From a virus (lineage: Duplodnaviria; Heunggongvirae; Uroviricota; Caudoviricetes), in IMG/VR virus record IMGVR_UViG_2585427782_000007: a stretch of 14,205 nt of DNA. The stretch is one strand, 5' to 3'. Below, one piece after another: positions 1 through 12,322 of this stretch. Under the pieces are notes generated by a model. That model made no database searches. It had not been told where the DNA came from and saw only the letters and a program-made list of their open reading frames with translations. Position 1 is the first letter of the stretch. Every line of letters starts with the position of its first letter. The position numbers and the translations under genes were made by a program.

Positions 1-504
1 CTTAAGCTCCGGATACATGGCGTTAACTTCTGGCATTTTCATCAACGCTTCAACGATATGTCCGTCGAATGTTGCCATGTCTTCCTGCAACAATTCCTGT
101 GCGCTAATAACCATATCAACGGTGATGTTTTCACATGTGTCGAACTTAACCATGACAGCGTTCTGTACTTCAGGGGCCAGCTTGTCAAAAGTGACGTTCA
201 TCGGATCGGATTCAGTCTCAACCGGGACAAAAGAAGCAGACTCCTCATCCCAGCGGTTTTCCTGCATATATTCAGCATCCCATGAATCGAGGGCAGGGCG
301 GGGTATGCCAGGTTTATCCTCGCAGACAATAAATTTATAAGCGCAGTCCTGAGCAGCCGGATAATGTTCCAGGAATTGCCAGTGAAATTTTGCTCGAGCA
401 CGGCGTTCGTCGCCAGCTTCAATGGCTGTGGCTACAGCCACAGCGCCTTCTTCCCTTGTTGCCAGTTCGTCAGGAATAGCGGCGCAAATAAAGACTTTAC
501 TCAT
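1..504 (-). CDS. Hypothetical prophage protein, N-terminal 168 codons; gene runs off the 5' edge of the window. By position downstream of dicB-ydfD it corresponds to ydfE of Qin.
   Basis: Minus-strand ATG at 502-504 with GAGG about 9 nt upstream; frame open for all 168 codons to position 1 (MSKVFICAAIPDELATREEGAVAVATAIEAGDERRARAKFHWQFLEHYP...). Not in the ORF table because no stop lies inside the window. Confidence 0.55.
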   Translation of the reverse strand, partial: MSKVFICAAIPDELATREEGAVAVATAIEAGDERRARAKFHWQFLEHYPAAQDCAYKFIVCEDKPGIPRPALDSWDAEYMQENRWDEESASFVPVETESDPMNVTFDKLAPEVQNAVMVKFDTCENITVDMVISAQELLQEDMATFDGHIVEALMKMPEVNAMYPELK

Positions 505-596
505 TTGTTTTAACCTCATGACAGATTTAAGGATGAACAAATCCCTGCCATTGCTGGCATATAAGAATGAAACCGGATATTTATTACGGAACTGTT

Positions 597-788
597 TTAA
601 AGACCTGCCGGGATTTCGATATTATCCTGGTGAATAACTTTATCGACCGGGTAACAGTTACCGGGAATTTTCTGTTCGGTTGCTGCAGTCATACACTCCT
701 GCATTGTCCTGTGAACACTGACTGCAATATCAACTGGCTCTCCGGAAACAAGAAAAACTGTCAGAACAAGCACAAATGCTGAATTCAT
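597..788 (-). CDS. ydfD: YdfD-like 63-aa protein with N-terminal hydrophobic segment (Qin prophage lysis protein)
   Basis: Internal Met of table ORF 597..842 gives MNSAFVLVLTVFLVSGEPVDIAVSVHRTMQECMTAATEQKIPGNCYPVDKVIHQDNIEIPAGL (63 aa). Its ATG overlaps the dicB stop as ATGA (plus-strand tcat at 785-788). Length and position match K-12 ydfD from memory. Confidence 0.6.
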   Translation of the reverse strand: MNSAFVLVLTVFLVSGEPVDIAVSVHRTMQECMTAATEQKIPGNCYPVDKVIHQDNIEIPAGL

Positions 789-973
789 TGTGCACATCCT
801 TTTGGCATCAGACGTAAACGAGCCAGCATTGAAACAATGCATATTTTATTTAATAGCTCCCGTTCTTGTTTTCTCTTGTTAATGGCATCTTCAGTAAATA
901 CTGGGTTACTGATAGTGACACCAATTTCAAAACAACCTTCAGACGTATTAACGTTTGGTAATAACGTTTTCAT
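785..973 (-). CDS. dicB: DicB cell-division inhibitor (62 aa)
   Basis: C-terminal 62 codons of table ORF 785..1180: MKTLLPNVNTSEGCFEIGVTISNPVFTEDAINKRKQERELLNKICIVSMLARLRLMPKGCAQ, with SD GAGGA upstream of ATG at 971-973. The upstream in-frame extension is H-rich and non-protein-like. Confidence 0.7.
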   Translation of the reverse strand: MKTLLPNVNTSEGCFEIGVTISNPVFTEDAINKRKQERELLNKICIVSMLARLRLMPKGCAQ

Positions 974-1202
974 TATCGCGTCCTCAACAATGAATTTTGT
1001 GATGCAGTGCCTGGTGCCTCCAGGTGACGTTAACCAGTTAACAATTAACGCCGGATACGAACAGGCAGCCAGTGATGATGGCGAGATCATGCGACCAAAA
1101 GAGCCTACGCGGTGGAAGTGCTGCTGATGTCGAATCCTAGCGTGATGACTATGAAGCGGGAAAAACTCCGGTCGAAGCATATTGTGATGAGTGGGGCGAT
1201 GA

Positions 1203-1490
1203 ATGAGCGAGATTAATTATCAGGAAGGGCATGAAACGGCGGGGCAAGCAAAACCAGTGGCATGGCGATATCGCTACGTGAAAAAAGGCGTTACGGACTT
1301 TCAGGGGAAGTAGTGGTCTGGTGACTGGAAATATGTACCGAAAAAAGAGGATTGTAACGACAGGCCGAACTATCAAATTCAGGCCTTATTCACTGCCTCA
1401 CCAGTCCCAGTTACATCAGAAGAACTGGTTAAAGCTGTGCACTTTTATGAACAACTAAAACGCGAAAATCCACCAACATCCGGCAACTAG
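1203..1490 (+). pseudogene. 95-codon ORF interrupted by a single in-frame TAG at 1311-1313 (candidate nonsense pseudogene)
   Basis: ATG 1203 gives MSEINYQEGHETAGQAKPVAWRYRYVKKGVTDFQGK, then TAG, then the same frame continues WSGDWKYVPKKEDCNDRPNYQIQALFTASPVPVTSEELVKAVHFYEQLKRENPPTSGN to stop at 1488-1490. Both halves look protein-like and there is no start codon after the TAG. Confidence 0.3.
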
Positions 1491-1744
1491 ATTAATGGAT
1501 TAACTATGTCGGTTAAACGACCAGCCAACTGAAAAAGCGGAAACCTGATTACAGGTTGCCAGATAAGGCAATGAGCTACCTGGCGCGGAACGGACTGATA
1601 AGTATGGGGAATGTTTTACGATGAACCTTTAGACTAAAGAGTTTGTAACGCTATGTAAGTGATTTTTTCTGGTTTAGATATTTATATGTCCGGCCAAATT
1701 GAGGTGTGTTTAAATGTAATTGCACATTGATTGTAGGAGGAATA

Positions 1745-1924
1745 ATGAAAAACGCATTGCAGTTTTTGTTTGTTGCGTTCTGGTTGTTCGCATCATGTAT
1801 GCCCATCATCTTCACAGCAAGGTATATGGAAAAAGTTGATGTTTTGATATTAATATTTGGATATATAAATGCCCTTTTTTTAGGGGTGTTCATGGCGGTC
1901 ATGTGCATTGAATACTGGCGGTAA
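1745..1924 (+). CDS. Small hydrophobic protein (59 aa, predicted two transmembrane segments), function unknown
   Basis: AGGAGG at 1735-1740, 4 nt before ATG 1745. MKNALQFLFVAFWLFASCMPIIFTARYMEKVDVLILIFGYINALFLGVFMAVMCIEYWR. The table ORF 1706..1924 starts at a GTG with no usable SD. Confidence 0.45.
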   Translation: MKNALQFLFVAFWLFASCMPIIFTARYMEKVDVLILIFGYINALFLGVFMAVMCIEYWR

Positions 1925-2072
1925 ATACAGCGAACTCCATTGGTTTAGTTGGATATTTACTGTGCTGGACAAAAACGGTTTGCGGGGAAATCTTAGTTAA
2001 GTAGAATGACTGCGGGTGCTTGAGGCTATCTGCCTCGGGCATGGACACCAACGGCAGATAGAGAAAAGCCCC

Positions 2073-3921
2073 AGTTAACATTACGCGTCCTGCAAGACGC
2101 TTAACATTAATCTGAGGCCAATTTCATGCTAGACACATGTAGGTTAGCCTCTTACGTGCCGAAAGGCACGGAGAAGCAGGCTATTGTTAACACCAAGCTG
2201 TAATGTCCCCTTTGAACCATTCTAAAATGTCCCCAGACAATTCTCTGGGGGATTTTTCATGATCAAAGAGACTGTTACGATGAGTCATAAGGAACTCCAC
2301 CGACTTCAGATTATTCAGGAACAAGCTGCGGCACGCATTGGCATTTCTATTCGGCAGGTTAAACGTCTGGTGCAACGGTATAGAAATGAAGGGCCTTCTG
2401 GTCTGGTTTCCCACCGACGTGGAAAGCGTCCTAATAATTCCTTTTCTACTGAATTCAGAGCAACAGTAATTTCACTCCTCAAAGGCCGTTACGCTGATTT
2501 TGGACCTACGTTTGCGTGCGAAAAATTGCGCGAGATACACGGTTTATCTTTATCCGTTGAAACTCTCAGAAAGTGGATGATAGAAGAGGGGTTATGGCGT
2601 GAACGCCGTCGTAAAATTGCCCGTATATATCAACGCCGCATGCGACGACCATCTTACGGTGAACTGATCCAGATTGATGGCTCACCTCATGACTGGTTTG
2701 AAAATCGAGGCCCCAGATGTACACTGATCGTTTTCATTGATGATGCCACCAGTGCGTTGATGGCGTTGCGTTTTGTGCCTGCTGAAACAACCCGGGCTTA
2801 CATGGAAACCCTCCGGGGTTACCTTAATGATCATGGCGTACCGCTCGCTCTCTACTCTGATAGACACAGTATATTCAGGGTAAATAACCCAGAGCGGGAA
2901 GGTGAGCTGACCCAGTTCACTCGTGCGATAAAGACACTGGGCATCGAGCCAATCCATGCCAACAGCCCGCAGGCAAAAGGGCGGGTAGAGCGCGCCAATC
3001 AGACACTACAGGACAGGCTGGTCAAAGAAATGCGGCTTCAGAATATCAGTGATATTGAAACAGCAAATGCATGGTTGCCGACCTTTATTGAAGCCTATAA
3101 CAACCGGTTCGCTACGTCGCCTCGTACTACTGATAATGCTCATCTTGATGTGCACCATTCTGAAGAGGAACTGGGTTATATCTTCAGCCTACAGGCGAAG
3201 CGCGTTCTGTCTAAAAATCTCACTTTCCAGTACAAAAGCAGTGCGTTTCAGGTACGCAGTGAGGGCCGGGGATATCGACTTAGGCATTCGGTTGTTACTG
3301 TATGCGAGAACTTTGACGGTGAAATTAACGTTCTGTATGACGGGAAAGCGCTGGGCTGGGAAAAGTATGTTGATGGCCCGGAGCCTATACCACTGGATGA
3401 TGAAAAGAGTGTCCATGAACGAGTGGATAATGCCCGTATTGATTTACGCTCAAAATACTATGTTAAACCTAAAGCTGACCATCCCTGGCTTACGCGCCGA
3501 ACGCAAAGTCATCAGCAAGTTAAGCCCCCGAAGTTACCTAAAAAGAAGCCTGATCCCGATAAAAAAGATTGAAACCAAGATCGATTCGGTTGAGTGCATA
3601 TCCATTCATAGGGTAGATTCTTAAGTCGCGTTTCTGGTGTTCATTTTCGGGTGGTTTGTTACTTGTTTTACCGGGGATATGCCAGAAACGCGCTGAGTCA
3701 GTCTGGGCGGTGCGCGTAATGAGGCGTTATGGTAAATAGCCTATGCTAATGTCCGCTAAGAGCAAGAAGCGGAAGTTGGCAGTTTTGTGGACTGTCCCCA
3801 CAAAAGTGACTACAGAAATAGTTGCAATTCATAATTGATCATGGGTTGTCAGTTAAACTCGTGGCGATTTAAATAGACTAATTGGGAGTGCGTCCATTAC
3901 TTATATCTTGTAATGTTAACT
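2073..3921 (+). mobile_element. Putative insertion sequence carrying the DDE transposase; boundaries tentative
   Basis: Single transposase ORF 2259..3572 flanked by an exact 12-bp inverted pair: AGTTAACATTAC at 2073-2084 and GTAATGTTAACT at 3910-3921. No similarity beyond the 12 bp and no flanking direct repeat, so the ends are uncertain. Confidence 0.3.
2259..3572 (+). CDS. DDE-type transposase with N-terminal helix-turn-helix (retroviral-integrase-like core; IS481/ISNCY-like, family not resolved)
   Basis: 437-aa ORF. N-terminal HTH-like segment (AARIGISIRQVKRLVQRY), then candidate catalytic residues in VFIDDATS, LYSDRHSIF and GRVERANQTLQDRL. GGGGGA precedes ATG 2259. Confidence 0.85.
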   Translation: MIKETVTMSHKELHRLQIIQEQAAARIGISIRQVKRLVQRYRNEGPSGLVSHRRGKRPNNSFSTEFRATVISLLKGRYADFGPTFACEKLREIHGLSLSVETLRKWMIEEGLWRERRRKIARIYQRRMRRPSYGELIQIDGSPHDWFENRGPRCTLIVFIDDATSALMALRFVPAETTRAYMETLRGYLNDHGVPLALYSDRHSIFRVNNPEREGELTQFTRAIKTLGIEPIHANSPQAKGRVERANQTLQDRLVKEMRLQNISDIETANAWLPTFIEAYNNRFATSPRTTDNAHLDVHHSEEELGYIFSLQAKRVLSKNLTFQYKSSAFQVRSEGRGYRLRHSVVTVCENFDGEINVLYDGKALGWEKYVDGPEPIPLDDEKSVHERVDNARIDLRSKYYVKPKADHPWLTRRTQSHQQVKPPKLPKKKPDPDKKD

Positions 3922-3964
3922 ATCAGAAATGATACAAAGATAATATGTCTTTAAAGAAAAGGCT

Positions 3965-3995
3965 GATGGCGAAAAGTGGCCCGATGAGGGCCACA
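3965..3995 (-). terminator. Rho-independent terminator of flxA
   Basis: Minus strand reads GTGGCCC-TCAT-CGGGCCAC (plus 3977-3995) followed by CTTTTC just after the flxA stop at 4009. Confidence 0.5.
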
Positions 3996-4008
3996 ATACG
4001 GCTGTCAC

Positions 4009-4341
4009 TTAGACGTAAATATCAATGGTGCCAGCGGTATTTGTATCGTCTTTTTTCTCTTCTTTTTTATCAGGCTGAACTGTCGCGTCTTCATTCTTTT
4101 TCTCTGCCTGCTGCCTTAACAACTGCTCCAGTTGAGCCCAGAGGCTTTCAATTTGCTTCTGTACCAATGCAGCCATTTCTTTTTTCTGCTGTGTCGTCAT
4201 CCCCTCTTCCGATGAGATTTTCCCAAGCTTTTCAGTCAGCACCTGAATTTGTCTTGTGATTTTGGCTATTTCTGATGTTCCTTCCGGGGCGGAGTTGTTT
4301 GAAATAACGGTTGAGGTATTTCCCTGAATTGTGACAGACAT
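4009..4341 (-). CDS. flxA: FlxA (110 aa), sigma-28-dependent prophage protein
   Basis: Table ORF 4009..4341; MSVTIQGNTSTVISNNSAPEGTSEI...; SD AGGAG upstream; consensus sigma-28 promoter immediately upstream. Confidence 0.8.
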   Translation of the reverse strand: MSVTIQGNTSTVISNNSAPEGTSEIAKITRQIQVLTEKLGKISSEEGMTTQQKKEMAALVQKQIESLWAQLEQLLRQQAEKKNEDATVQPDKKEEKKDDTNTAGTIDIYV

Positions 4342-4364
4342 AGATTTCTCCTTTTAAAAAAGCA

Positions 4365-4391
4365 CTATCGGCATGCACAAAAAAATCTTTA
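4365..4391 (-). promoter_or_regulatory. Sigma-28 (FliA) promoter of flxA
   Basis: Minus strand reads TAAAGATT-N11-GCCGATAG against consensus TAAAGTTT-N11-GCCGATAA (plus 4384-4391 and 4365-4372), about 23 nt upstream of the flxA ATG. Confidence 0.6.
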
Positions 4392-4543
4392 ATCGTATTT
4401 CTTGTGTCATTAATTGTTTGATGTTCAGATTGTTTTCCTCGCGGGCTGGCGCGCCTCAGAAAGTAAAGCTTGTTGACAGGGGTAAACGTTCGGCAATAAT
4501 TTTCTGCCGCATGCGGGTGTTGCATAAAACGTGTTACGTTCCT

Positions 4544-4849
4544 TTATCGACAGGTCAGGTCACCGCTCACCCGCCGACGAGAAAGCAACACTGACATGCT
4601 AAAGCAAAAAATAGATGAATAAGTTGAGTTGTGCATATGTAGCCTGACCGTCACAAAGTATATGGTGTCTGTACCAGTAAGATGATGGCCGGACTCTTTA
4701 AAAACGAGCTGACCTGCACAATACAGGATGGACTTAGCAATGGCTGCTCCTGGCACAAAGCGGACAGTGATCACCGTTCTTACGACTACTTTCTGACTTC
4801 CTTCGTGACTTGCCCTAAGCATGTTGTAGTGCGATACTTGTAATGACAT
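4544..4849 (-). CDS. ydfV: YdfV-like hypothetical protein (101 aa); weak coding evidence
   Basis: Table ORF of 101 aa diverging from relB, matching remembered K-12 ydfV length and position. No SD, and its start codon lies inside the relBE operator, so it may not be translated. Confidence 0.35.
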   Translation of the reverse strand: MSLQVSHYNMLRASHEGSQKVVVRTVITVRFVPGAAIAKSILYCAGQLVFKESGHHLTGTDTIYFVTVRLHMHNSTYSSIFCFSMSVLLSRRRVSGDLTCR

Positions 4850-4862
4850 TTGTAATTACAAG
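4836..4862 (+). promoter_or_regulatory. relBE promoter/operator (relO)
   Basis: TTGTAAT repeated at 4838-4844 and 4850-4856; perfect palindrome TTGTAATTACAA at 4850-4861, directly upstream of the relB SD AGAGG and ATG 4874. Confidence 0.6.
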
Positions 4863-4873
4863 AGGTGTAAGAC

Positions 4874-5113
4874 ATGGGTAGCATTAACCTGCGTATTGAC
4901 GATGAACTTAAAGCGCGTTCTTACGCCGCGCTTGAAAAAATGGGTGTAACTCCTTCTGAAGCGCTTCGTCTCATGCTCGAGTATATCGCTGACAATGAAC
5001 GCTTGCCGTTCAAACAGACACTCCTGAGTGATGAAGATGCTGAACTTGTGGAGATAGTGAAAGAACGGCTTCGTAATCCTAAGCCAGTACGTGTGACGCT
5101 GGATGAACTCTGA
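4874..5113 (+). CDS. relB: RelB antitoxin (79 aa)
   Basis: MGSINLRIDDELKARSYAALEKMGVTPSEALRLMLEYIADNERLPFKQTLLSDEDAELVEIVKERLRNPKPVRVTLDEL, near-identical to remembered K-12 RelB. Stop overlaps relE start (TGATG). Confidence 0.95.
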   Translation: MGSINLRIDDELKARSYAALEKMGVTPSEALRLMLEYIADNERLPFKQTLLSDEDAELVEIVKERLRNPKPVRVTLDEL

Positions 5114-5400
5114 TGGCGTATTTTCTGGATTTTGACGAGCGGGCACTAAAGGAATGGCGAAAGCTGGGCTCGACGGTACGTGAACAGTTGAAAAAGAAGC
5201 TGGTTGAAGTACTTGAGTCACCCCGGATTGAAGCAAACAAGCTCCGTGGTATGCCTGATTGTTACAAGATTAAGCTCCGGTCTTCAGGCTATCGCCTTGT
5301 ATACCAGGTTATAGACGAGAAAGTTGTCGTTTTCGTGATTTCTGTTGGGAAAAGAGAACGCTCGGAAGTATATAGCGAGGCGGTCAAACGCATTCTCTGA
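5113..5400 (+). CDS. relE: RelE mRNA-interferase toxin (95 aa)
   Basis: MAYFLDFDERALKEWRKLGSTVREQLKKKLVEVLESPRIEANKLRGMPDCYKIKLRSSGYRLVYQVIDEKVVVFVISVGKRERSEVYSEAVKRIL, translationally coupled to relB. Confidence 0.95.
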   Translation: MAYFLDFDERALKEWRKLGSTVREQLKKKLVEVLESPRIEANKLRGMPDCYKIKLRSSGYRLVYQVIDEKVVVFVISVGKRERSEVYSEAVKRIL

Positions 5401-5471
5401 ACCAAAGCATGACATCTCTGTTTCGCACCGAAGGTGACACTTCTGCTTTGCGTTGACAGGAGAAGCAGGCT

Positions 5472-5627
5472 ATGAAGCAGCAAAAGGCGATGTTAATCGC
5501 CCTGATCGTCATCTGTTTAACCGTCATAGTGACGGCACTGGTAACGAGGAAAGACCTCTGCGAGGTACGAATCCGAACCGGCCAGACGGAGGTCGCTGTC
5601 TTCACAGCTTACGAACCTGAGGAGTAA
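5472..5627 (+). CDS. hokD: HokD/RelF Hok-family membrane toxin (51 aa)
   Basis: Below the table cutoff; read manually from ATG 5472: MKQQKAMLIALIVICLTVIVTALVTRKDLCEVRIRTGQTEVAVFTAYEPEE, stop TAA 5625-5627. Confidence 0.9.
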   Translation: MKQQKAMLIALIVICLTVIVTALVTRKDLCEVRIRTGQTEVAVFTAYEPEE

Positions 5628-5696
5628 GAGACCCGGCGGGGGAGAAATCCCTCGCCACCTCTGATGTGGCAGGCATCCTCAACGCACCCGCACTTA

Positions 5697-5728
5697 ACCC
5701 GCTTCGGCGGGTTTTTGTTTTTATTTTC
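5697..5728 (+). terminator. Rho-independent terminator of the relB-relE-hokD operon
   Basis: AACCCGC-TTCG-GCGGGTT hairpin at 5697-5714 followed by TTTTTGTTTTTATTTT. Confidence 0.6.
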
Positions 5729-5843
5729 AACGCGTTTGAAGTTCTGGACGGTGCCGGAATAGAATCAAAAATACTTAAGTAGCGCGCAGGGATAAGAGGG
5801 ATGGTCCCTTAAAGGGGAGAGCTAATTATCCGGAAGGATTCTG

Positions 5844-6095
5844 ATGATGAACATCGAAGAACTGCGTAAAATTTTTTGTGAAGATGGCCTCTATGCTGTG
5901 TGCGTTGAAAATGGAAATCTTGTTAGTCATTACCGCATTATGTGTTTGCGAAAGAATGGGGCTGCGTTAATTAATTTTGTGGATGCTCGGGTCACGGACG
6001 GATTTATCTTGCGCGAAGGTGAGTTTGTCACTTCATTACAGGCATTGAAAGAGATCGGAATAAAAGCTGGCTTTTCTGCTTTTTCAGGAGAATAA
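5844..6095 (+). CDS. rem: Rem-like hypothetical protein (83 aa)
   Basis: Table ORF with GGAAGG SD; the 83-aa length and position between hokD and ydfU match K-12 rem from memory. Sequence identity not verified. Confidence 0.55.
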   Translation: MMNIEELRKIFCEDGLYAVCVENGNLVSHYRIMCLRKNGAALINFVDARVTDGFILREGEFVTSLQALKEIGIKAGFSAFSGE

Positions 6096-6161
6096 ACTCA
6101 TCTACAATCTTGCGCGGGGCTGAACTCCCGCTGAGTAACACCGTGCCACCGGAGAAAACCG

Positions 6162-6440
6162 ATGGCACGCAACGCAAAATATTACAATTCTGATAATTCG
6201 CCCGTTCTTGCCTGCACGCACGGGCGGTATTCTCACGCATTCAAGTCTGAATGGTTCCAGCACCCTCCATGCACTGCAGAACAGGCCGAATGGCTGATTC
6301 ATTCTTACCGCAGGCGCGGGTTCGAGGTTAAGAAAGCTCTCAGTCTCGACTATCGGCACTGGATAATCTCTGTCAGGCTGCCTTATTCCGAACGCCCACC
6401 ACGTGCGTCCCGCACTTTCCAGCAACGGATCTGGAGGTAA
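6162..6440 (+). CDS. Hypothetical 92-aa protein, translationally coupled to ydfU
   Basis: GGAG about 9 nt before ATG 6162; stop TAA 6438-6440 lies 1 nt before the ydfU GTG 6442, and the ydfU SD GGAGG is inside this ORF's 3' end. I do not recall a K-12 gene at this position. Confidence 0.5.
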   Translation: MARNAKYYNSDNSPVLACTHGRYSHAFKSEWFQHPPCTAEQAEWLIHSYRRRGFEVKKALSLDYRHWIISVRLPYSERPPRASRTFQQRIWR

Positions 6441-6441
6441 C

Positions 6442-7491
6442 GTGCGGGTATTACTTAGACCTGTTCTGGTGCCTGAGCTTGGGCTGGTGGTCCTTAAGCC
6501 GGGCCGTGAATCCATACAGATATTTCATAATCCTCGAGTGCTGGTGGAACCGGAACCAAAAAGCATGCGTAATCTGCCATCCGGAGTCGTTCCTGCCGTT
6601 CGCCAGCCGCTGGCGGAAGACAAAACATTGCTGCCGTTTTTTAGTAACGAACGGGTGATTCGTGCTGCTGGCGGCGTTGGCGCATTGTCCGACTGGCTAT
6701 TACGTCATGTTACATCCTGCCAGTGGCCTAATGGCGATTACCATCACACTGAAACAGTCATTCACCGTTATGGTACCGGCGCAATGGTGTTGTGCTGGCA
6801 CTGCGACAACCAACTGCGTGACCAGACATCGGAATCACTGGAGCTGCTTGCTCAACAAAATCTGACAGCATGGGTGATTGACGTCATCCGTCACGCAATA
6901 AGCGGTACGCAGGAGCGGGAATTATCTTTGGCTGAATTATCCTGGTGGGCGGTCTGCAATCAGGTGGTGGATGCACTACCTGAGGCTGTATCGCGTCGTT
7001 CGCTGGGATTACCAGCGGAAAAAATCTGCTCGGTGTACCGCGAAAGCGACATCGTACCGGGAGAGCAGACCGCCACCAGCATATTGAAACAACGCACAAA
7101 AAATCTTGCACCGTTGCCTTACGCCCACCAGCAACAAAAATCACCACAGGAAAAGACGGTGGTAAGCATCACCGTTGATCCAGAGTCTCCGGAATCTTTC
7201 ATGAAGCTGCCTAAACGTCGCCGCTGGGTTAAGGAGAAATACACACGTTGGGTTAAGACACAGCCGTGTGCTTGCTGCGGTATGCCAGCCGACGATCCGC
7301 ATCATCTGATTGGTCACGGGCAGGGCGGAATGGGAACAAAAGCACATGATCTCTTTGTGTTGCCTTTGTGCAGAAAGCATCACAACGAGCTGCATACGGA
7401 TACAGTGGCATTTGAAGATAAGTATGGCTCCCAACTGGAGCTGATATTTCGTTTTATCGATCGCGCGCTGACAATTGGCGTACTGGCGTAA
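6442..7491 (+). CDS. ydfU: YdfU-like DUF968 protein (349 aa) with C-terminal HNH-like Cys/His motif
   Basis: Table ORF 6403..7491 (362 aa); GTG 6442 preceded by GGAGG gives 349 aa, the remembered K-12 YdfU length. C-terminus QPCACCGMPADDPHHLIGHGQGGMGTKAHDLFVLPLCRKHHNELH. Confidence 0.8.
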   Translation: MRVLLRPVLVPELGLVVLKPGRESIQIFHNPRVLVEPEPKSMRNLPSGVVPAVRQPLAEDKTLLPFFSNERVIRAAGGVGALSDWLLRHVTSCQWPNGDYHHTETVIHRYGTGAMVLCWHCDNQLRDQTSESLELLAQQNLTAWVIDVIRHAISGTQERELSLAELSWWAVCNQVVDALPEAVSRRSLGLPAEKICSVYRESDIVPGEQTATSILKQRTKNLAPLPYAHQQQKSPQEKTVVSITVDPESPESFMKLPKRRRWVKEKYTRWVKTQPCACCGMPADDPHHLIGHGQGGMGTKAHDLFVLPLCRKHHNELHTDTVAFEDKYGSQLELIFRFIDRALTIGVLA

Positions 7492-7504
7492 GTGGAGAAC
7501 GAGC

Positions 7505-8257
7505 ATGAACCTTGAAGCCTTACCAAAATATTACTCCCCAAAATCTCCAAAATTGAGCGATGACGCTCCAGCGACAGGCACCGGTTGTTTAACAATTACG
7601 GATGTAATGGCAGCGCAGGGGATGGTGCAGTCGAAAGCACCACTTGGGTTGGCCTTATTTCTGGCAAAAGTTGGTGTTCAGGACCCTCAGTTTGCGATTG
7701 AAGGCCTGCTAAATTACGCGATGGCACTGGATAACCCGACATTGAACAAATTGAGTGAAGAAATCCGGTTACAGATTATTCCTTACCTCGTGAGTTTTGC
7801 CTTTGCTGATTACTCCAGGTCTGCGGCAAGTAAGGCTCGCTGTGAGCATTGTTCAGGTACGGGATTTTATAATGTATTGCGCGAAGTGGTGAAACACTAC
7901 AGACGCGGGGAATCTGTAATCAAGGAAGAATGGGTGAAGGAACTATGTCAGCATTGCCATGGTAAGGGCGAAGCCAGCACAGCGTGCAGAGGGTGTAAGG
8001 GTAAAGGGATTGTTCTGGATGAAAAAAGAACCCGGTTTCATGGCGTACCGGTATATAAGATTTGTGGGCGTTGTAATGGAAACCGGTTTAGTCGTTTACC
8101 GACCACGCTGGCACGACGTCATGTCCAGAAGCTGGTACCAGACCTGACCGATTATCAGTGGTATAAGGGGTATGCGGACGTCATTGGTAAACTGGTAACA
8201 AAGTGCTGGCAGGAAGAAGCATACGCGGAAGCGCAATTGAGGAAGGTGACGAGATAA
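7505..8257 (+). CDS. quuQ: Q-type late antiterminator QuuQ (250 aa) with four DnaJ-like CxxCxGxG repeats
   Basis: ATG 7505 preceded by GGAG at 7493-7496 (MNLEALPKYYSPKSPK...). Repeats CEHCSGTG, CQHCHGKG, CRGCKGKG, CGRCNGN. Sits directly upstream of a promoter plus short terminator, as for lambdoid Q. Confidence 0.85.
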   Translation: MNLEALPKYYSPKSPKLSDDAPATGTGCLTITDVMAAQGMVQSKAPLGLALFLAKVGVQDPQFAIEGLLNYAMALDNPTLNKLSEEIRLQIIPYLVSFAFADYSRSAASKARCEHCSGTGFYNVLREVVKHYRRGESVIKEEWVKELCQHCHGKGEASTACRGCKGKGIVLDEKRTRFHGVPVYKICGRCNGNRFSRLPTTLARRHVQKLVPDLTDYQWYKGYADVIGKLVTKCWQEEAYAEAQLRKVTR

Positions 8258-8288
8258 ATGATTTTTGCTGAAGATGGCGACATGATGT

Positions 8289-8317
8289 TTGCATTTTTCA
8301 AAAAATATGGATAAAAT
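8289..8317 (+). promoter_or_regulatory. Candidate late promoter (pR'-like) downstream of quuQ
   Basis: TTGCAT (8289-8294), 17-nt spacer, TAAAAT (8312-8317); followed about 50 nt later by a strong terminator, the arrangement expected for a Q-utilisation site. Confidence 0.5.
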
Positions 8318-8363
8318 TTTTTCAACGATGGGCTTTGTATACCCGACGTTAAGAAAAAGTAGA

Positions 8364-8393
8364 AAACCCGCTGATGAGCGGGTTTTGTGCTTT
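8364..8393 (+). terminator. Rho-independent terminator (tR'-like) of the short late leader transcript
   Basis: Perfect 9-bp stem AAACCCGCT-GATG-AGCGGGTTT (8364-8385) followed by TGTGCTTT. Confidence 0.6.
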
Positions 8394-8678
8394 AAATGGG
8401 GCAATGGTAATGTTGAATCTCATCCCGGGACTCATGTCTGTTAACTTATTATTTAGCTGGTGACTTGGTTATTTGCCTGATGTTTAAAATGTTTTCTTCC
8501 AGTACAATGTCCCTAAACACAATGAGTCTGCTTATTATATTATTAGCAGAGCTATTACGGCCAAAGTACAGCATAAGCTTTTAAAGCCAATCAACCAGTC
8601 ATCAAGACAGACGGGGTTATTCATAAAAACTCTCCATGTGTGATCCGATGGGGCCTGAAATTAAAGCTTTAATATAGC

Positions 8679-8891
8679 TCATGAAAGGTAAACATTGGCA
8701 GCTGAAGGGCCACGCAGACCATTTATCCGGCAAAATTCCACGCGTAATCCGGTGGTAATTTCTTCTGCATCGCGGAGATTGAGCGCTGAAACATGAAGCT
8801 GGACATCGATACGACCATCGGATGGGGTGATAAGACCCTTGCCGCTTTTGCCGTCAAAGGTTTTGACAATTCCTGTCATTTTACGGGACAA
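8679..8891 (-). CDS. cspF: Cold-shock protein family member CspF (70 aa)
   Basis: [70 protein letters not shown]; divergent from cspB as in Qin. Confidence 0.9.
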
Positions 8892-9191
8892 AAAAATTCC
8901 TTAATACTGATAACTTGGCGCACTATACACACGTTCCTGAAGAAAGCTATAGTTTTTTGATGGGGTTGAAGATGGCTGGATGTCTAAAATAAACATTGCT
9001 TCATATGTTCAACTATGCGTTAATGATTGCGTCGGTTTGAAGAACAGACGATATACGAAGTAGTTTACTAAAGCAGTTCTCATTTCAGGTGTTATTCACT
9101 TATTCCTTCTTTGAGTCTCTCCAATTAAGTACGAAGTCGTTTCTGTTATGCAAACCATTTATGCCGAAAGGCTCAAGTTAAGGAATGTAGA

Positions 9192-9407
9192 ATGTCAAAT
9201 AAAATGACTGGTTTAGTAAAATGGTTTAACGCTGATAAAGGTTTCGGCTTTATTTCTCCTGTTGATGGTAGTAAAGATGTGTTTGTGCATTTTTCTGCGA
9301 TTCAGAATGATAATTATCGAACCTTATTTGAAGGTCAAAAGGTTACCTTCTCTATAGAGAGTGGTGCTAAAGGTCCTGCAGCAGCAAATGTCATCATTAC
9401 TGATTAA
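9192..9407 (+). CDS. cspB: Cold-shock protein CspB (71 aa)
   Basis: [71 protein letters not shown]; SD AAGGAA; roughly 300-bp upstream region typical of csp leaders. Confidence 0.9.
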
Positions 9408-9688
9408 AATTCATCGCTCGTCTGTATACGATAACGAAGAAGGCTGATGCCTGAGTAGAGATACGGACAGAGTAGTGAATATTGGATCTCTTTAATAAAA
9501 AGTAAGGAGGTCCAATACATGAAACAATGGCTAGCATATTTGGCAAAATCTTAATCAGGAAAAGTATGCTAACCATTGTGGTGAAGTGCAGGTTTGCTGC
9601 ATGAATAGTTTTACAGCAGAAGCTAACTGCTGGCATGGCAAAACAAAGTGCGTAAGTGGATGACTCCCACAAAAAGCACCACAATCTC

Positions 9689-11716: not shown

Positions 11717-12078
11717 GGTAATATTAAATCGGAACATTTACATCGCGGAATGTAAAATTTAAATAAAAAGGACTCTTCCATGAGCCAAAATTCCTGAAAT
11801 CTTAAGGGTAAGATAAAAGGTCTTAATCAGAATGACACGTTTTATTAATAAATAAAGCTATTCTTTCATTGCTGTGTTTTTCTTTACAAAAGTAATCCTT
11901 GCTATGGGTGGTTAATCATGCGTTAATGGTGTTCTGGTTTGTTACAAATTTATCTGAAGCAGTCATTGTTATAATTTTATTATTTGTACCTCTTGAGATT
12001 TCCTTGTTGGTTTTTCTCTCTGATATTTTTTTTCGGACCATTCTGCCCAAGGGCTAATTTCTTCAAAAGGTAATAATT

Positions 12079-12291
12079 ATGTCTAACAAAATGACTGGTT
12101 TAGTGAAATGGTTTAACCCTGAAAAAGGTTTTGGTTTCATCACGCCGAAAGATGGCAGCAAAGATGTGTTTGTCCATTTCTCAGCAATTCAGAGCAACGA
12201 TTTCAAAACATTAACTGAGAATCAGGAAGTTGAATTTGGTATTGAGAACGGACCTAAAGGTCCTGCCGCTGTTCATGTAGTGGCGCTTTGA
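12079..12291 (+). CDS. cspI: Cold-shock protein CspI (70 aa)
   Basis: [70 protein letters not shown]; about 360-bp AT-rich upstream leader. Confidence 0.9.
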
Positions 12292-12322
12292 GGTAGACAA
12301 TATTACAAACCATATTCACTTT

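Follow-up and report, generated by a model that had tools for sequence, protein, structure and literature searches.

We analysed a window of 14,205 nucleotides of viral DNA (Caudoviricetes, IMG/VR record IMGVR_UViG_2585427782_000007), a Qin-like lambdoid prophage in a rare decayed state and in the orientation opposite to that of K-12, and followed up the interval between dicB and flxA (973-4008). The loss of the dicA/dicC immunity module from this interval is real. We consider it highly probable that it arose by a microhomology-mediated double deletion, that this left the division inhibitor gene dicB and the lysis gene ydfD as orphans, and that the transposase gene of the interval belongs to an unrelated, older relBE transposon located at hokD. 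The deletions were placed on a composite reference made of K-12 (locus L001) and G1/2 (L003), the positions of which are given as composite coordinates. The features of the left part of the window on which the argument builds are the following.

597-788, minus strand: ydfD (lysis protein), intact; window 1-1058 is 100% identical to K-12, and the gene is annotated by RefSeq in an identical locus.
785-973, minus strand: dicB (cell-division inhibitor), intact open reading frame (ORF), from the ORF list, RefSeq and the K-12 alignment.
974-1058, minus strand: native dicB upstream stub, 85 bp; K-12 and G1/2 homology both end at 1058.
1056-1058, no strand: deletion junction 1, microhomology TAC (3 bp); composite 2060-5113 removed.
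1056-1107, plus strand: 52-bp stranded island from inside an O-like replication gene, 100% identical to G1/2 (L003 4238-4289), to REL606 and to ET745.
1106-1107, no strand: deletion junction 2, microhomology TA (2 bp); composite 5166-6742 removed.
1203-1624, plus strand: pseudogene, distal remnant of the rightward early operon, carried by dicA+ relatives too.
1745-1924, plus strand: 59-aa hydrophobic ORF without a family match, carried by dicA+ relatives too.

A first-pass annotation, made from the letters alone, had given the K-12 order as flxA, ydfW/intK, ydfX, dicC, dicA, ydfA, ydfB, ydfC, dicF and dicB, which is correct, and had reported that here the space between flxA (4009-4341, minus strand) and dicB (785-973, minus strand), the two genes that bracket it, holds a DDE transposase, an amber-interrupted ORF and a 59-aa membrane ORF, and no minus-strand ORF of DicA size. 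The three features were found: the transposase at 2259-3572 (NCBIfam NF033594, 456 bits, together with Pfam HTH and rve_3), the interrupted ORF at 1203-1624, labelled "frameshifted; internal stop" by RefSeq in identical loci, and the hydrophobic ORF at 1745-1924. The absence of dicA and dicC was likewise borne out, and for the whole 14.2-kb window. With the G1/2 proteins as queries, tblastn at E <= 10 returned nothing beyond noise of 13-32 residues; the best match of DicA (HTH_3) to the window had E = 0.45 over 15 residues, and for DicC (Cro-like, Pfam P22_Cro) there was no tblastn match in the window at E <= 10. As a positive control, DicA of G1/2 scores Pfam HTH_3 at 1e-16. The DicA operator pattern (Oc, TTGTTAGTCATAACTAACAA, PMC3441716) has no match in the window at up to 3 mismatches, and there is no Rfam match to DicF in the window at the gathering threshold. 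On the composite reference, Oc (3698-3717), an operator-like site (3187-3206), dicF (2149-2201) and the position of dicC all fall within deletion 1.

The two deletions can be read from pairwise BLAST with G1/2, in which window 1-1058 corresponds to G1/2 1002-2059 and window 1056-1107 to G1/2 4238-4289, both at 100% identity, while window 1106-4500 corresponds to G1/2 5867-9261 at 99.97%. The order in G1/2 is ydfD, dicB, dicA, dicC, ydaT, the O-like gene, DUF977, a methyltransferase, a DUF7167 pseudogene, the pseudogene of the 1203-1624 type, the transposase, ydfW and flxA. Deletion 1 took dicF, ydfCBA, the dicB promoter dicBp with its operators, dicA, dicC, ydaT and the 5' part of the O-like gene, and deletion 2 took the 3' part of the O-like gene, DUF977, the methyltransferase and the DUF7167 pseudogene, which amounts to ~4.6 kb of early-region DNA lost in both. 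K-12 homology to window 1-1058 ends at the same base, 85 bp upstream of the dicB ATG, and therefore dicF was lost too. Mechanistically, microhomology-mediated deletions at the TAC and TA junctions would have removed the early region and spared the 52-bp island. The deletion itself is ordinary, routine prophage decay.

When window 500-4400 was compared by megablast with 5426 complete E. coli genomes, many loci were found to hold the entire query in 2-4 pieces with extra DNA interposed. The double junction, represented by a 241-bp query over both junctions, is fully covered in just 3 of the 5426 genomes, whereas a dicB-dicA-dicC query is covered to at least 80% in 723. The three are independent complete assemblies from Myanmar (TOE17), Japan (AST46) and Hong Kong (DLI.5a); TOE17 is a close relative of the window, and AST46 and DLI.5a are near-identical to the whole of it, with 1-2 mismatches and one short gap, which rules out an assembly artefact. 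The window arrangement is thus a rare and derived state and not the ancestral one, in line with the deletion of the immunity module that the first-pass annotation had proposed; the opposite outcome that it had allowed for, a common ancestral form with no deletion, does not agree with the alignment to fuller prophages, which shows two deletions. That a Qin-type phage never had dicA/dicC here could be argued from the mosaic nature of lambdoid prophages, since REL606 (L005) carries different genes (queH) in part of the region. However, besides the rarity of the arrangement, the sequence on either side of each junction has a contiguous counterpart of 100% identity in fuller prophages, a 52-bp fragment from inside an ORF is left between the junctions, and other strains show a graded truncation series of the same collinear sequence, so that we regard an ancestral alternative module as extremely improbable. 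Elsewhere in the same region, E. coli C (L080) has its own deletion from ydaT to DUF7167 and keeps dicA and dicC, and the stretch from the replication genes to flxA draws insertion sequence (IS) insertions in different strains: ISSen4, IS3, IS1B, and IS66 with inversion (E. coli C, L077, L078, L079 and L013).

The transposase stands in an element of its own, whose right end lies beyond flxA. Its parts, with the left and right terminal inverted repeats given as IRL and IRR, are the following.

1994-2184, plus strand: orphaned hokD leader (hok/sok/mok regulatory region), Rfam RF01794 sok, 104 bits, at 2014-2185.
2170-2184, no strand: left copy of a 15-bp target-site duplication, GGAGAAGCAGGCTAT, perfect (15/15).
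2185-5458, plus strand: proposed ISEsa1-type (IS1202 family) transposon, 3274 bp, with IRL, tnp, flxA, ydfV, relB, relE and IRR; the empty site is in REL606.
2185-2210, plus strand: IRL, TGTTAACACCAAGCTGTAATGTCCCC; independent left flanks diverge exactly here.
2259-3572, plus strand: ISEsa1 transposase (IS1202 family), 437 aa; NF033594 ISNCY, 456 bits, E = 7e-137; Pfam HTH, rve_3.
3778-4746, minus strand: variable cargo segment with flxA (4009-4341) and most of ydfV (4544-4849), replaced by ~10.5 kb of ncr/chr genes in plasmid copies.
4874-5400, plus strand: relB (4874-5113) and relE (5113-5400), conserved right-arm cargo; Pfam RelB E = 1e-32, ParE_toxin E = 2e-13.
5433-5458, minus strand: IRR, reverse complement TGTCAACGCAAAGCAGAAGTGTCACC, 19/26 matches to IRL.
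5459-5473, no strand: right copy of the 15-bp duplication, source of the Shine-Dalgarno sequence and of the first two letters (AT) of the hokD ATG.
5472-5627, plus strand: hokD ORF, downstream of relBE; Pfam HOK_GEF 1e-23.

The NF033594 score of the transposase exceeds the cutoff of 250 bits, and the protein equals the ISEsa1 transposase WP_004196353.1 save for 9 aa that an in-frame deletion took from the N-terminal HTH region (the transposase of plasmid ISEsa1 has 446 aa): 27 bp are missing at ~2316, between codons 19 and 20, which removes the ESINRHITQ region, and the rest is 100% identical. This deletion probably inactivates the window transposase. The label given by the Prokaryotic Genome Annotation Pipeline, "Incomplete, missing C-terminus", that is, a truncated transposase, was rejected, as the protein is full length against the ISEsa1 transposase but for the N-terminal 9 aa. 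In ET745 the transposase gene keeps the 27 bp but is split into two ORFs.

The extent of the element follows from comparison with the empty site. The leader adjoins hokD without a break in REL606, window 1994-2184 corresponding to L005 4895-5085 and window 5458 onward to L005 5070 onward; both window flanks match L005 5070-5085, and from this 16-bp overlap it follows that 2185-5457/8 would be an insertion flanked by a duplication. Likewise, many E. coli genomes have the last 85 bp of the sok/hok leader directly before hokD, whereas in the window 3274 bp separate the leader from hokD at 5472. The ends are of the 5'-TGT type (IRL TGTTAACACC... at 2185, IRR reverse complement TGTCAACGC... ending at 5458). 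The first-pass annotation had seen no flanking direct repeat, and a direct-repeat search inside 900-4100 indeed gave only short chance pairs; the true right end was found outside the interval by comparing filled with empty sites, and with that end at 5458 the perfect 15-bp repeat GGAGAAGCAGGCTAT stands at 2170-2184 and 5459-5473. A proximal IRR-like sequence (...GTTTGGTTGAC), the end of the 1.6-kb plasmid ISEsa1, was rejected as the right end: all plasmid copies have the same right flank there, it is degenerate in the window and no duplication fits. We therefore read the transposase as what appears to be the left arm of a 3274-bp ISEsa1-type transposon. Such a transposon, older than the deletions, would have inserted at the Shine-Dalgarno/ATG of hokD with duplication of 15 bp, detaching the hok/sok leader (1994-2184) from the hokD ORF (5472) and setting hokD behind relBE.

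This bears directly on the model of the first-pass annotation, in which a transposase had inserted where dicA/dicC would be and had caused an IS-mediated adjacent deletion, with the promoter kept, the repressor lost and some other factor silencing dicB-ydfD. That dicA and dicC are absent, that a transposase lies between dicB and flxA and that no direct repeat occurs within 973-4008 all speak for such an event. However, the missing DNA belongs at 1058 and 1107, and both junctions, ~1.1 kb left of the transposase ORF, touch neither end of the element (2185 and 5458); no deletion endpoint coincides with an IS terminus, and 2-3 bp of microhomology are present at both. Moreover, the element is flanked by its perfect duplication, and in G1/2 and E. 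coli C dicA and dicC coexist with the same transposase, ydfW and flxA at the same place, the transposase lying ~4-5 kb from dicA in dicA+ relatives. The element, shared with dicA+ strains and with K-12, is older than the deletion, and the transposase is unrelated to that loss. Finally, dicBp lies within the deleted DNA (PMC10448788). We consider the IS-mediated model very improbable. Of the earlier observations, the flanking genes, the transposase, the ORFs and the absence of DicA/DicC stood, while the missing repeat and the transposase in the place of dicA/dicC did not.

The loss of the promoter changes what the loss of the repressor would mean. Located between dicA and ydfA, dicBp is under repression by DicA, with a 22-fold derepression in a dicA deletion, and is the only promoter detected in the operon (PMC10448788). 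We assigned its -35 and -10 pair by eye together with the operator pattern, and by this reading of our own TTGACC and TAATTT, 17 nt apart, lie at composite 3152-3180 and, with flanking operator-like sites, occupy composite 3152-3206, within deletion 1. Repressor and promoter would thus have been lost together, leaving dicB-ydfD with 85 bp of upstream DNA. While the first-pass annotation was right about a derived deletion of the immunity module, its IS-mediated cause and its derepressed dicB, in need of another means of silencing, do not hold, since deletion 1 also took dicBp and dicF. It is most likely that dicB and ydfD are promoterless, transcriptionally silent orphans, silenced in cis by promoter loss, and the loss of DicA would be tolerated because the promoter was lost with the repressor. 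All dicA-less variants that were mapped lack dicBp (8/8: the window, KL53, CFSAN061772, G4/9, MLI105, LR-58-1, SW07091 and SCU-118), and the dicA+ forms spanning the region (K-12, G1/2 and E. coli C) keep the promoter region. These variants offer a natural example of a rule, that a Qin prophage without dicA is also without dicBp, which agrees with the published toxicity of dicA loss when the dicBF operon is intact.

Two further observations concern this control region. G1/2 lacks ydfABC (876 bp, junction at L003 2277/2278), and the junction falls inside the assigned -10 hexamer of dicBp, so that a hybrid dicBp is probably what drives dicF-dicB directly in this dicA+ strain. In the window, rem (5844-6095) is intact, although both DicA and dicBp are gone; in K-12 it encodes an antirepressor that lifts DicA repression of dicBp (PMC10448788).

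Several points weigh against the combined explanation of a microhomology double deletion, orphaned dicB-ydfD and an older transposon at hokD. The support for transposition of the proposed unit is comparative, consisting of filled versus empty sites and locus-specific duplications; the window transposase has its 9-aa deletion, and ISEsa1 is listed as 1609 bp with no detectable duplication (PMC10132070). The left breakpoint is common to four other deletions and may reflect a site-specific process rather than random illegitimate recombination. As for dicB, weak or read-through transcription may reach it. A crude consensus scan gave no minus-strand promoter-like site in 560-4400, and this negative is weak evidence, as the scan missed dicBp in the K-12 dicA-ydfA spacer and gave no minus-strand site in the window even where the Sok promoter is expected. 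TOE17 also has 3 places that match a dicB-upstream query, so other lambdoid prophages are present in that strain. One may propose that transcription of dicB-ydfD persists, either as read-through or because the 85-bp stub or the fused DNA holds a cryptic promoter, and that a DicA-like repressor of another lambdoid prophage controls it in trans or that low expression is tolerated or even useful by blocking ManXYZ-dependent phages. The dicB and ydfD ORFs are indeed intact and 100% identical to K-12, and DicB protects against some phages (PMC6832061). On the other side stand the outcome of the promoter scan, a terminator-like hairpin on the minus strand (1557-1542), the lack of any remaining DicA operator for a trans repressor, and the fact that in K-12 no promoter besides dicBp was found (PMC10448788). 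Continued transcription is thus unlikely in our view, and silencing in cis by promoter loss remains the preferred reading.

The position of junction 1 deserves separate attention. The left breakpoint falls directly after CCGGATA (...AACGCCGGATA(C) or ...GTTAACCAGTTAACAATTAACGCCGGATA), at window 1057/1058 and composite 2058/2059, 84-85 bp upstream of dicB, and five different deletions have this left breakpoint in common with different right ends.

MLI105: right breakpoint at composite 4161, microhomology GGATA.
KL53 / NCTC13148: right breakpoint at composite 5056, microhomology TA.
Window: right breakpoint at composite 5114, microhomology TAC.
CFSAN061772: right breakpoint at composite 5572, microhomology GATA.
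G4/9: right breakpoint at composite 5897, microhomology GATA.

Each of these deletion types is rare (~1-5 genomes), and the counts for the other junction types are inflated, nearby pieces having been merged into one place. The recurrence of one left breakpoint with five right endpoints, together with a palindrome cluster (GTTAACCAGTTAACAATTAAC) immediately to its left, may point to a site-specific or IS-related process, such as successive events at a fragile site or, for the second deletion, removal of a former IS66, instead of random illegitimate recombination. Furthermore, the endpoints of the second deletion (composite 5165 and 6743) lie 2-44 bp from an IS66 insertion/inversion in MLI105 and a 232-bp IS remnant in LR-58-1, and the second deletion may have removed such an IS remnant. 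However, none of the five junctions contains an IS terminus, each has 2-5 bp of microhomology, as slippage or end joining predicts, and three other dicA-less variants use different left breakpoints. We hold a site-specific process to be a tentative possibility, and it is a refinement of the microhomology double deletion, not a competitor to it. An IS-mediated origin of the hotspot was rejected for want of an IS terminus, and so was a Chi site, as only CCTGGTGC, which is not Chi, is present. The recurrence may stem from slippage at stalled replication forks or from a fragile site that persisted and gave rise to repeated events. The site upstream of dicB is a candidate structure- or protein-induced deletion hotspot.

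Related units with duplications of 15-16 bp occupy the corresponding position in other hok genes. Plasmid copies of ISEsa1 match window 2185-3777 with 98% identity, and their right neighbour is ncrY in all copies examined. On a Phytobacter IncF plasmid (L011, NZ_AP018757.1, 2517-15357) the ISEsa1 tnp, ncrYCBA, chrBA, other genes, relB and relE are followed by Hok; the unit measures 12.8 kb, has a perfect repeat of 16 bp, AGGAGAAGTCAGCTAT, on either side and occupies the same position in another hok gene, and its right arm (14647-15376) corresponds to window 4747-5476 at 98.5%. On IncF plasmids (this one and also L006, L008 and L010) the transposon ends enclose ~10.5 kb with genes for resistance to nickel (ncrABCY) and to chromate (chrBA). 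An exact-match scan for the right end, CTTCTGCTTTGCGTTGAC, in one genome per species located it in the representatives of ~28 Enterobacterales species, apart from chance hits elsewhere. An A comes next in 28/28, so that the end reads ...GTTGACA, with a reverse complement beginning TGTCAAC, which fits the 5'-TGT terminus of the IS1202 family (bioRxiv 10.1101/2022.12.17.520857). In 17 of the 28, no more than 20 nt separate this end from a hok start codon, and the Hok types at these sites are clearly different (HokD-like, HokE-like and R1-Hok-like; Pfam HOK_GEF 1e-12 to 1e-23). Duplications were scored only where both ends lay in the fetched DNA.

L024/L058: duplication 16/16, unit of 6092 bp.
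L018: duplication 14/16, unit of 2574 bp, non-hok site.
L037: duplication 14/16, unit of 1937 bp, non-hok site.

In Leclercia sp. EMC7 (L071), IRR at ~4208 is followed by AGAAGGCTAT and then by the left end of a second related element (GTGTTAATCCTATGTAGTAATGTCCC...), and one hok site seems to have taken both insertions.

From these comparisons we consider it probable that ISEsa1 is the left arm of a larger relBE transposon with a distal inverted repeat, 15-16-bp duplications and a preference for the hok Shine-Dalgarno/ATG, that one such event made the K-12 relB-relE-hokD arrangement (relBEF) and left the ydfW/intK remnant, and that the same vehicle moves nickel and chromate cargo on IncF plasmids. 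If this is true, the insertion decapitates a type I system, and hok comes under the control of the relBE promoter. The transposon would explain why hokD comes without sok/mok and is co-transcribed with relBE, and would account for the nature of ydfW/intK and ydfX in K-12. It also points to a mobile element that may favour hok translation-initiation regions by their sequence or structure, with AGGAGAAG...AT(G) as the predicted preferred site. A transposon that carries relBE and targets hok is, to our mind, the most interesting thing in the interval, and the deletion less so.

K-12 Qin matches window 3388-4500, and its ydfW (formerly intK; L001 4175-4324, window 3423-3572) is the in-frame last 49 codons (389-437) of the ISEsa1 transposase, while ydfX (L001 4347-4637) crosses the junction at which the deletion in K-12 joined the 5' part of ydaT to the transposase remnant. 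K-12 Qin is thus itself a different deletion derivative, missing composite 4226-9024 (from ydaT' through the 5' part of the transposase). It keeps only the right two-thirds of the transposon unit, and the transposon structure is invisible there because the hok leader and the left arm were lost.

As to the remainder of the window, the ORF list and the RefSeq annotation of near-identical loci place ydfD (597-788, minus strand), dicB (785-973, minus strand) and the interval at the left, flxA (4009-4341, minus strand), ydfV, relB (from 4874), relE (from 5113), hokD (5472-5627) and rem in the middle, and ydfU, the Q antiterminator, csp genes and lysis genes at the right. Rfam RF01766 (the cspA-type thermoregulator 5' untranslated region) matches at 9031-9423 and 11933-12318 with 159 and 113 bits, and both matches precede the prophage cold-shock genes cspB and cspI.

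Compared with known systems, the window is 100% identical to K-12 Qin from ydfD to 85 bp upstream of dicB, and again from the 3' end of the transposase gene through flxA, relBE and hokD, and it differs in that K-12 has the arrangement dicC, Oc, dicA (dicC and dicA divergent around Oc), dicBp, ydfABC, dicF, dicB and ydfD, of which dicF, ydfABC, dicBp, dicA and dicC are missing here. The lambda PL operon (kil) and kilR of Rac resemble dicB-ydfD in having division inhibitors in a leftward early operon under the prophage repressor, which normally keeps their toxicity in check, whereas the control proposed for the window is physical loss of the promoter and not repression. With the chromosomal hok loci the window has in common that hok was inactivated or rewired by a mobile element: in K-12, hokA, hokC and hokE are reportedly IS-disrupted, with IS150 or IS186 nearby, an account ascribed to Pedersen & Gerdes 1999. 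In contrast to those loci, the cut that the window element makes between leader and ORF falls exactly at the Shine-Dalgarno/ATG, and hok gains an upstream promoter from a type II toxin-antitoxin system. An integration of relBE into hokD, "acquired from plasmids", was noted earlier (Ramisetty & Santhosh 2016, as cited in PMC6379469), and neither the ISEsa1 vehicle nor its duplication nor its preference for hok was found described in the literature searched, which did not cover Ramisetty & Santhosh 2016 itself.

The closest comparison is with the IS1202 family, which has three duplication classes (5-6, 15-17 and 27-28 bp), TGT termini and occasional passenger genes (bioRxiv 10.1101/2022.12.17.520857). 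The window unit resembles it in the DDE transposase with an ISNCY/IS1202-type N-terminal HTH, in imperfect terminal inverted repeats starting from 5'-TGT (19/26), and in a target duplication of family length (15/15 in the window, 16/16 in L011 and L024/L058, 14/16 in L018 and L037). Unlike the compact IS of this family (~1.3-1.75 kb with the transposase only; ISEsa1 = 1609 bp), the window unit has 3274 bp with flxA, ydfV and relBE, and seems to behave as a transporter IS or transposon. It differs from the catalogued ISEsa1 in that the duplication appears only when the right end is placed downstream of relBE, giving units of 1.9-12.8 kb (3.27 kb in the window), which would explain why none has been recorded for ISEsa1. 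Finally, the insertions recur at the hok start codon, a target unreported for the family, in which targeting of xrs/dif has been reported only for the 5-bp subgroup.

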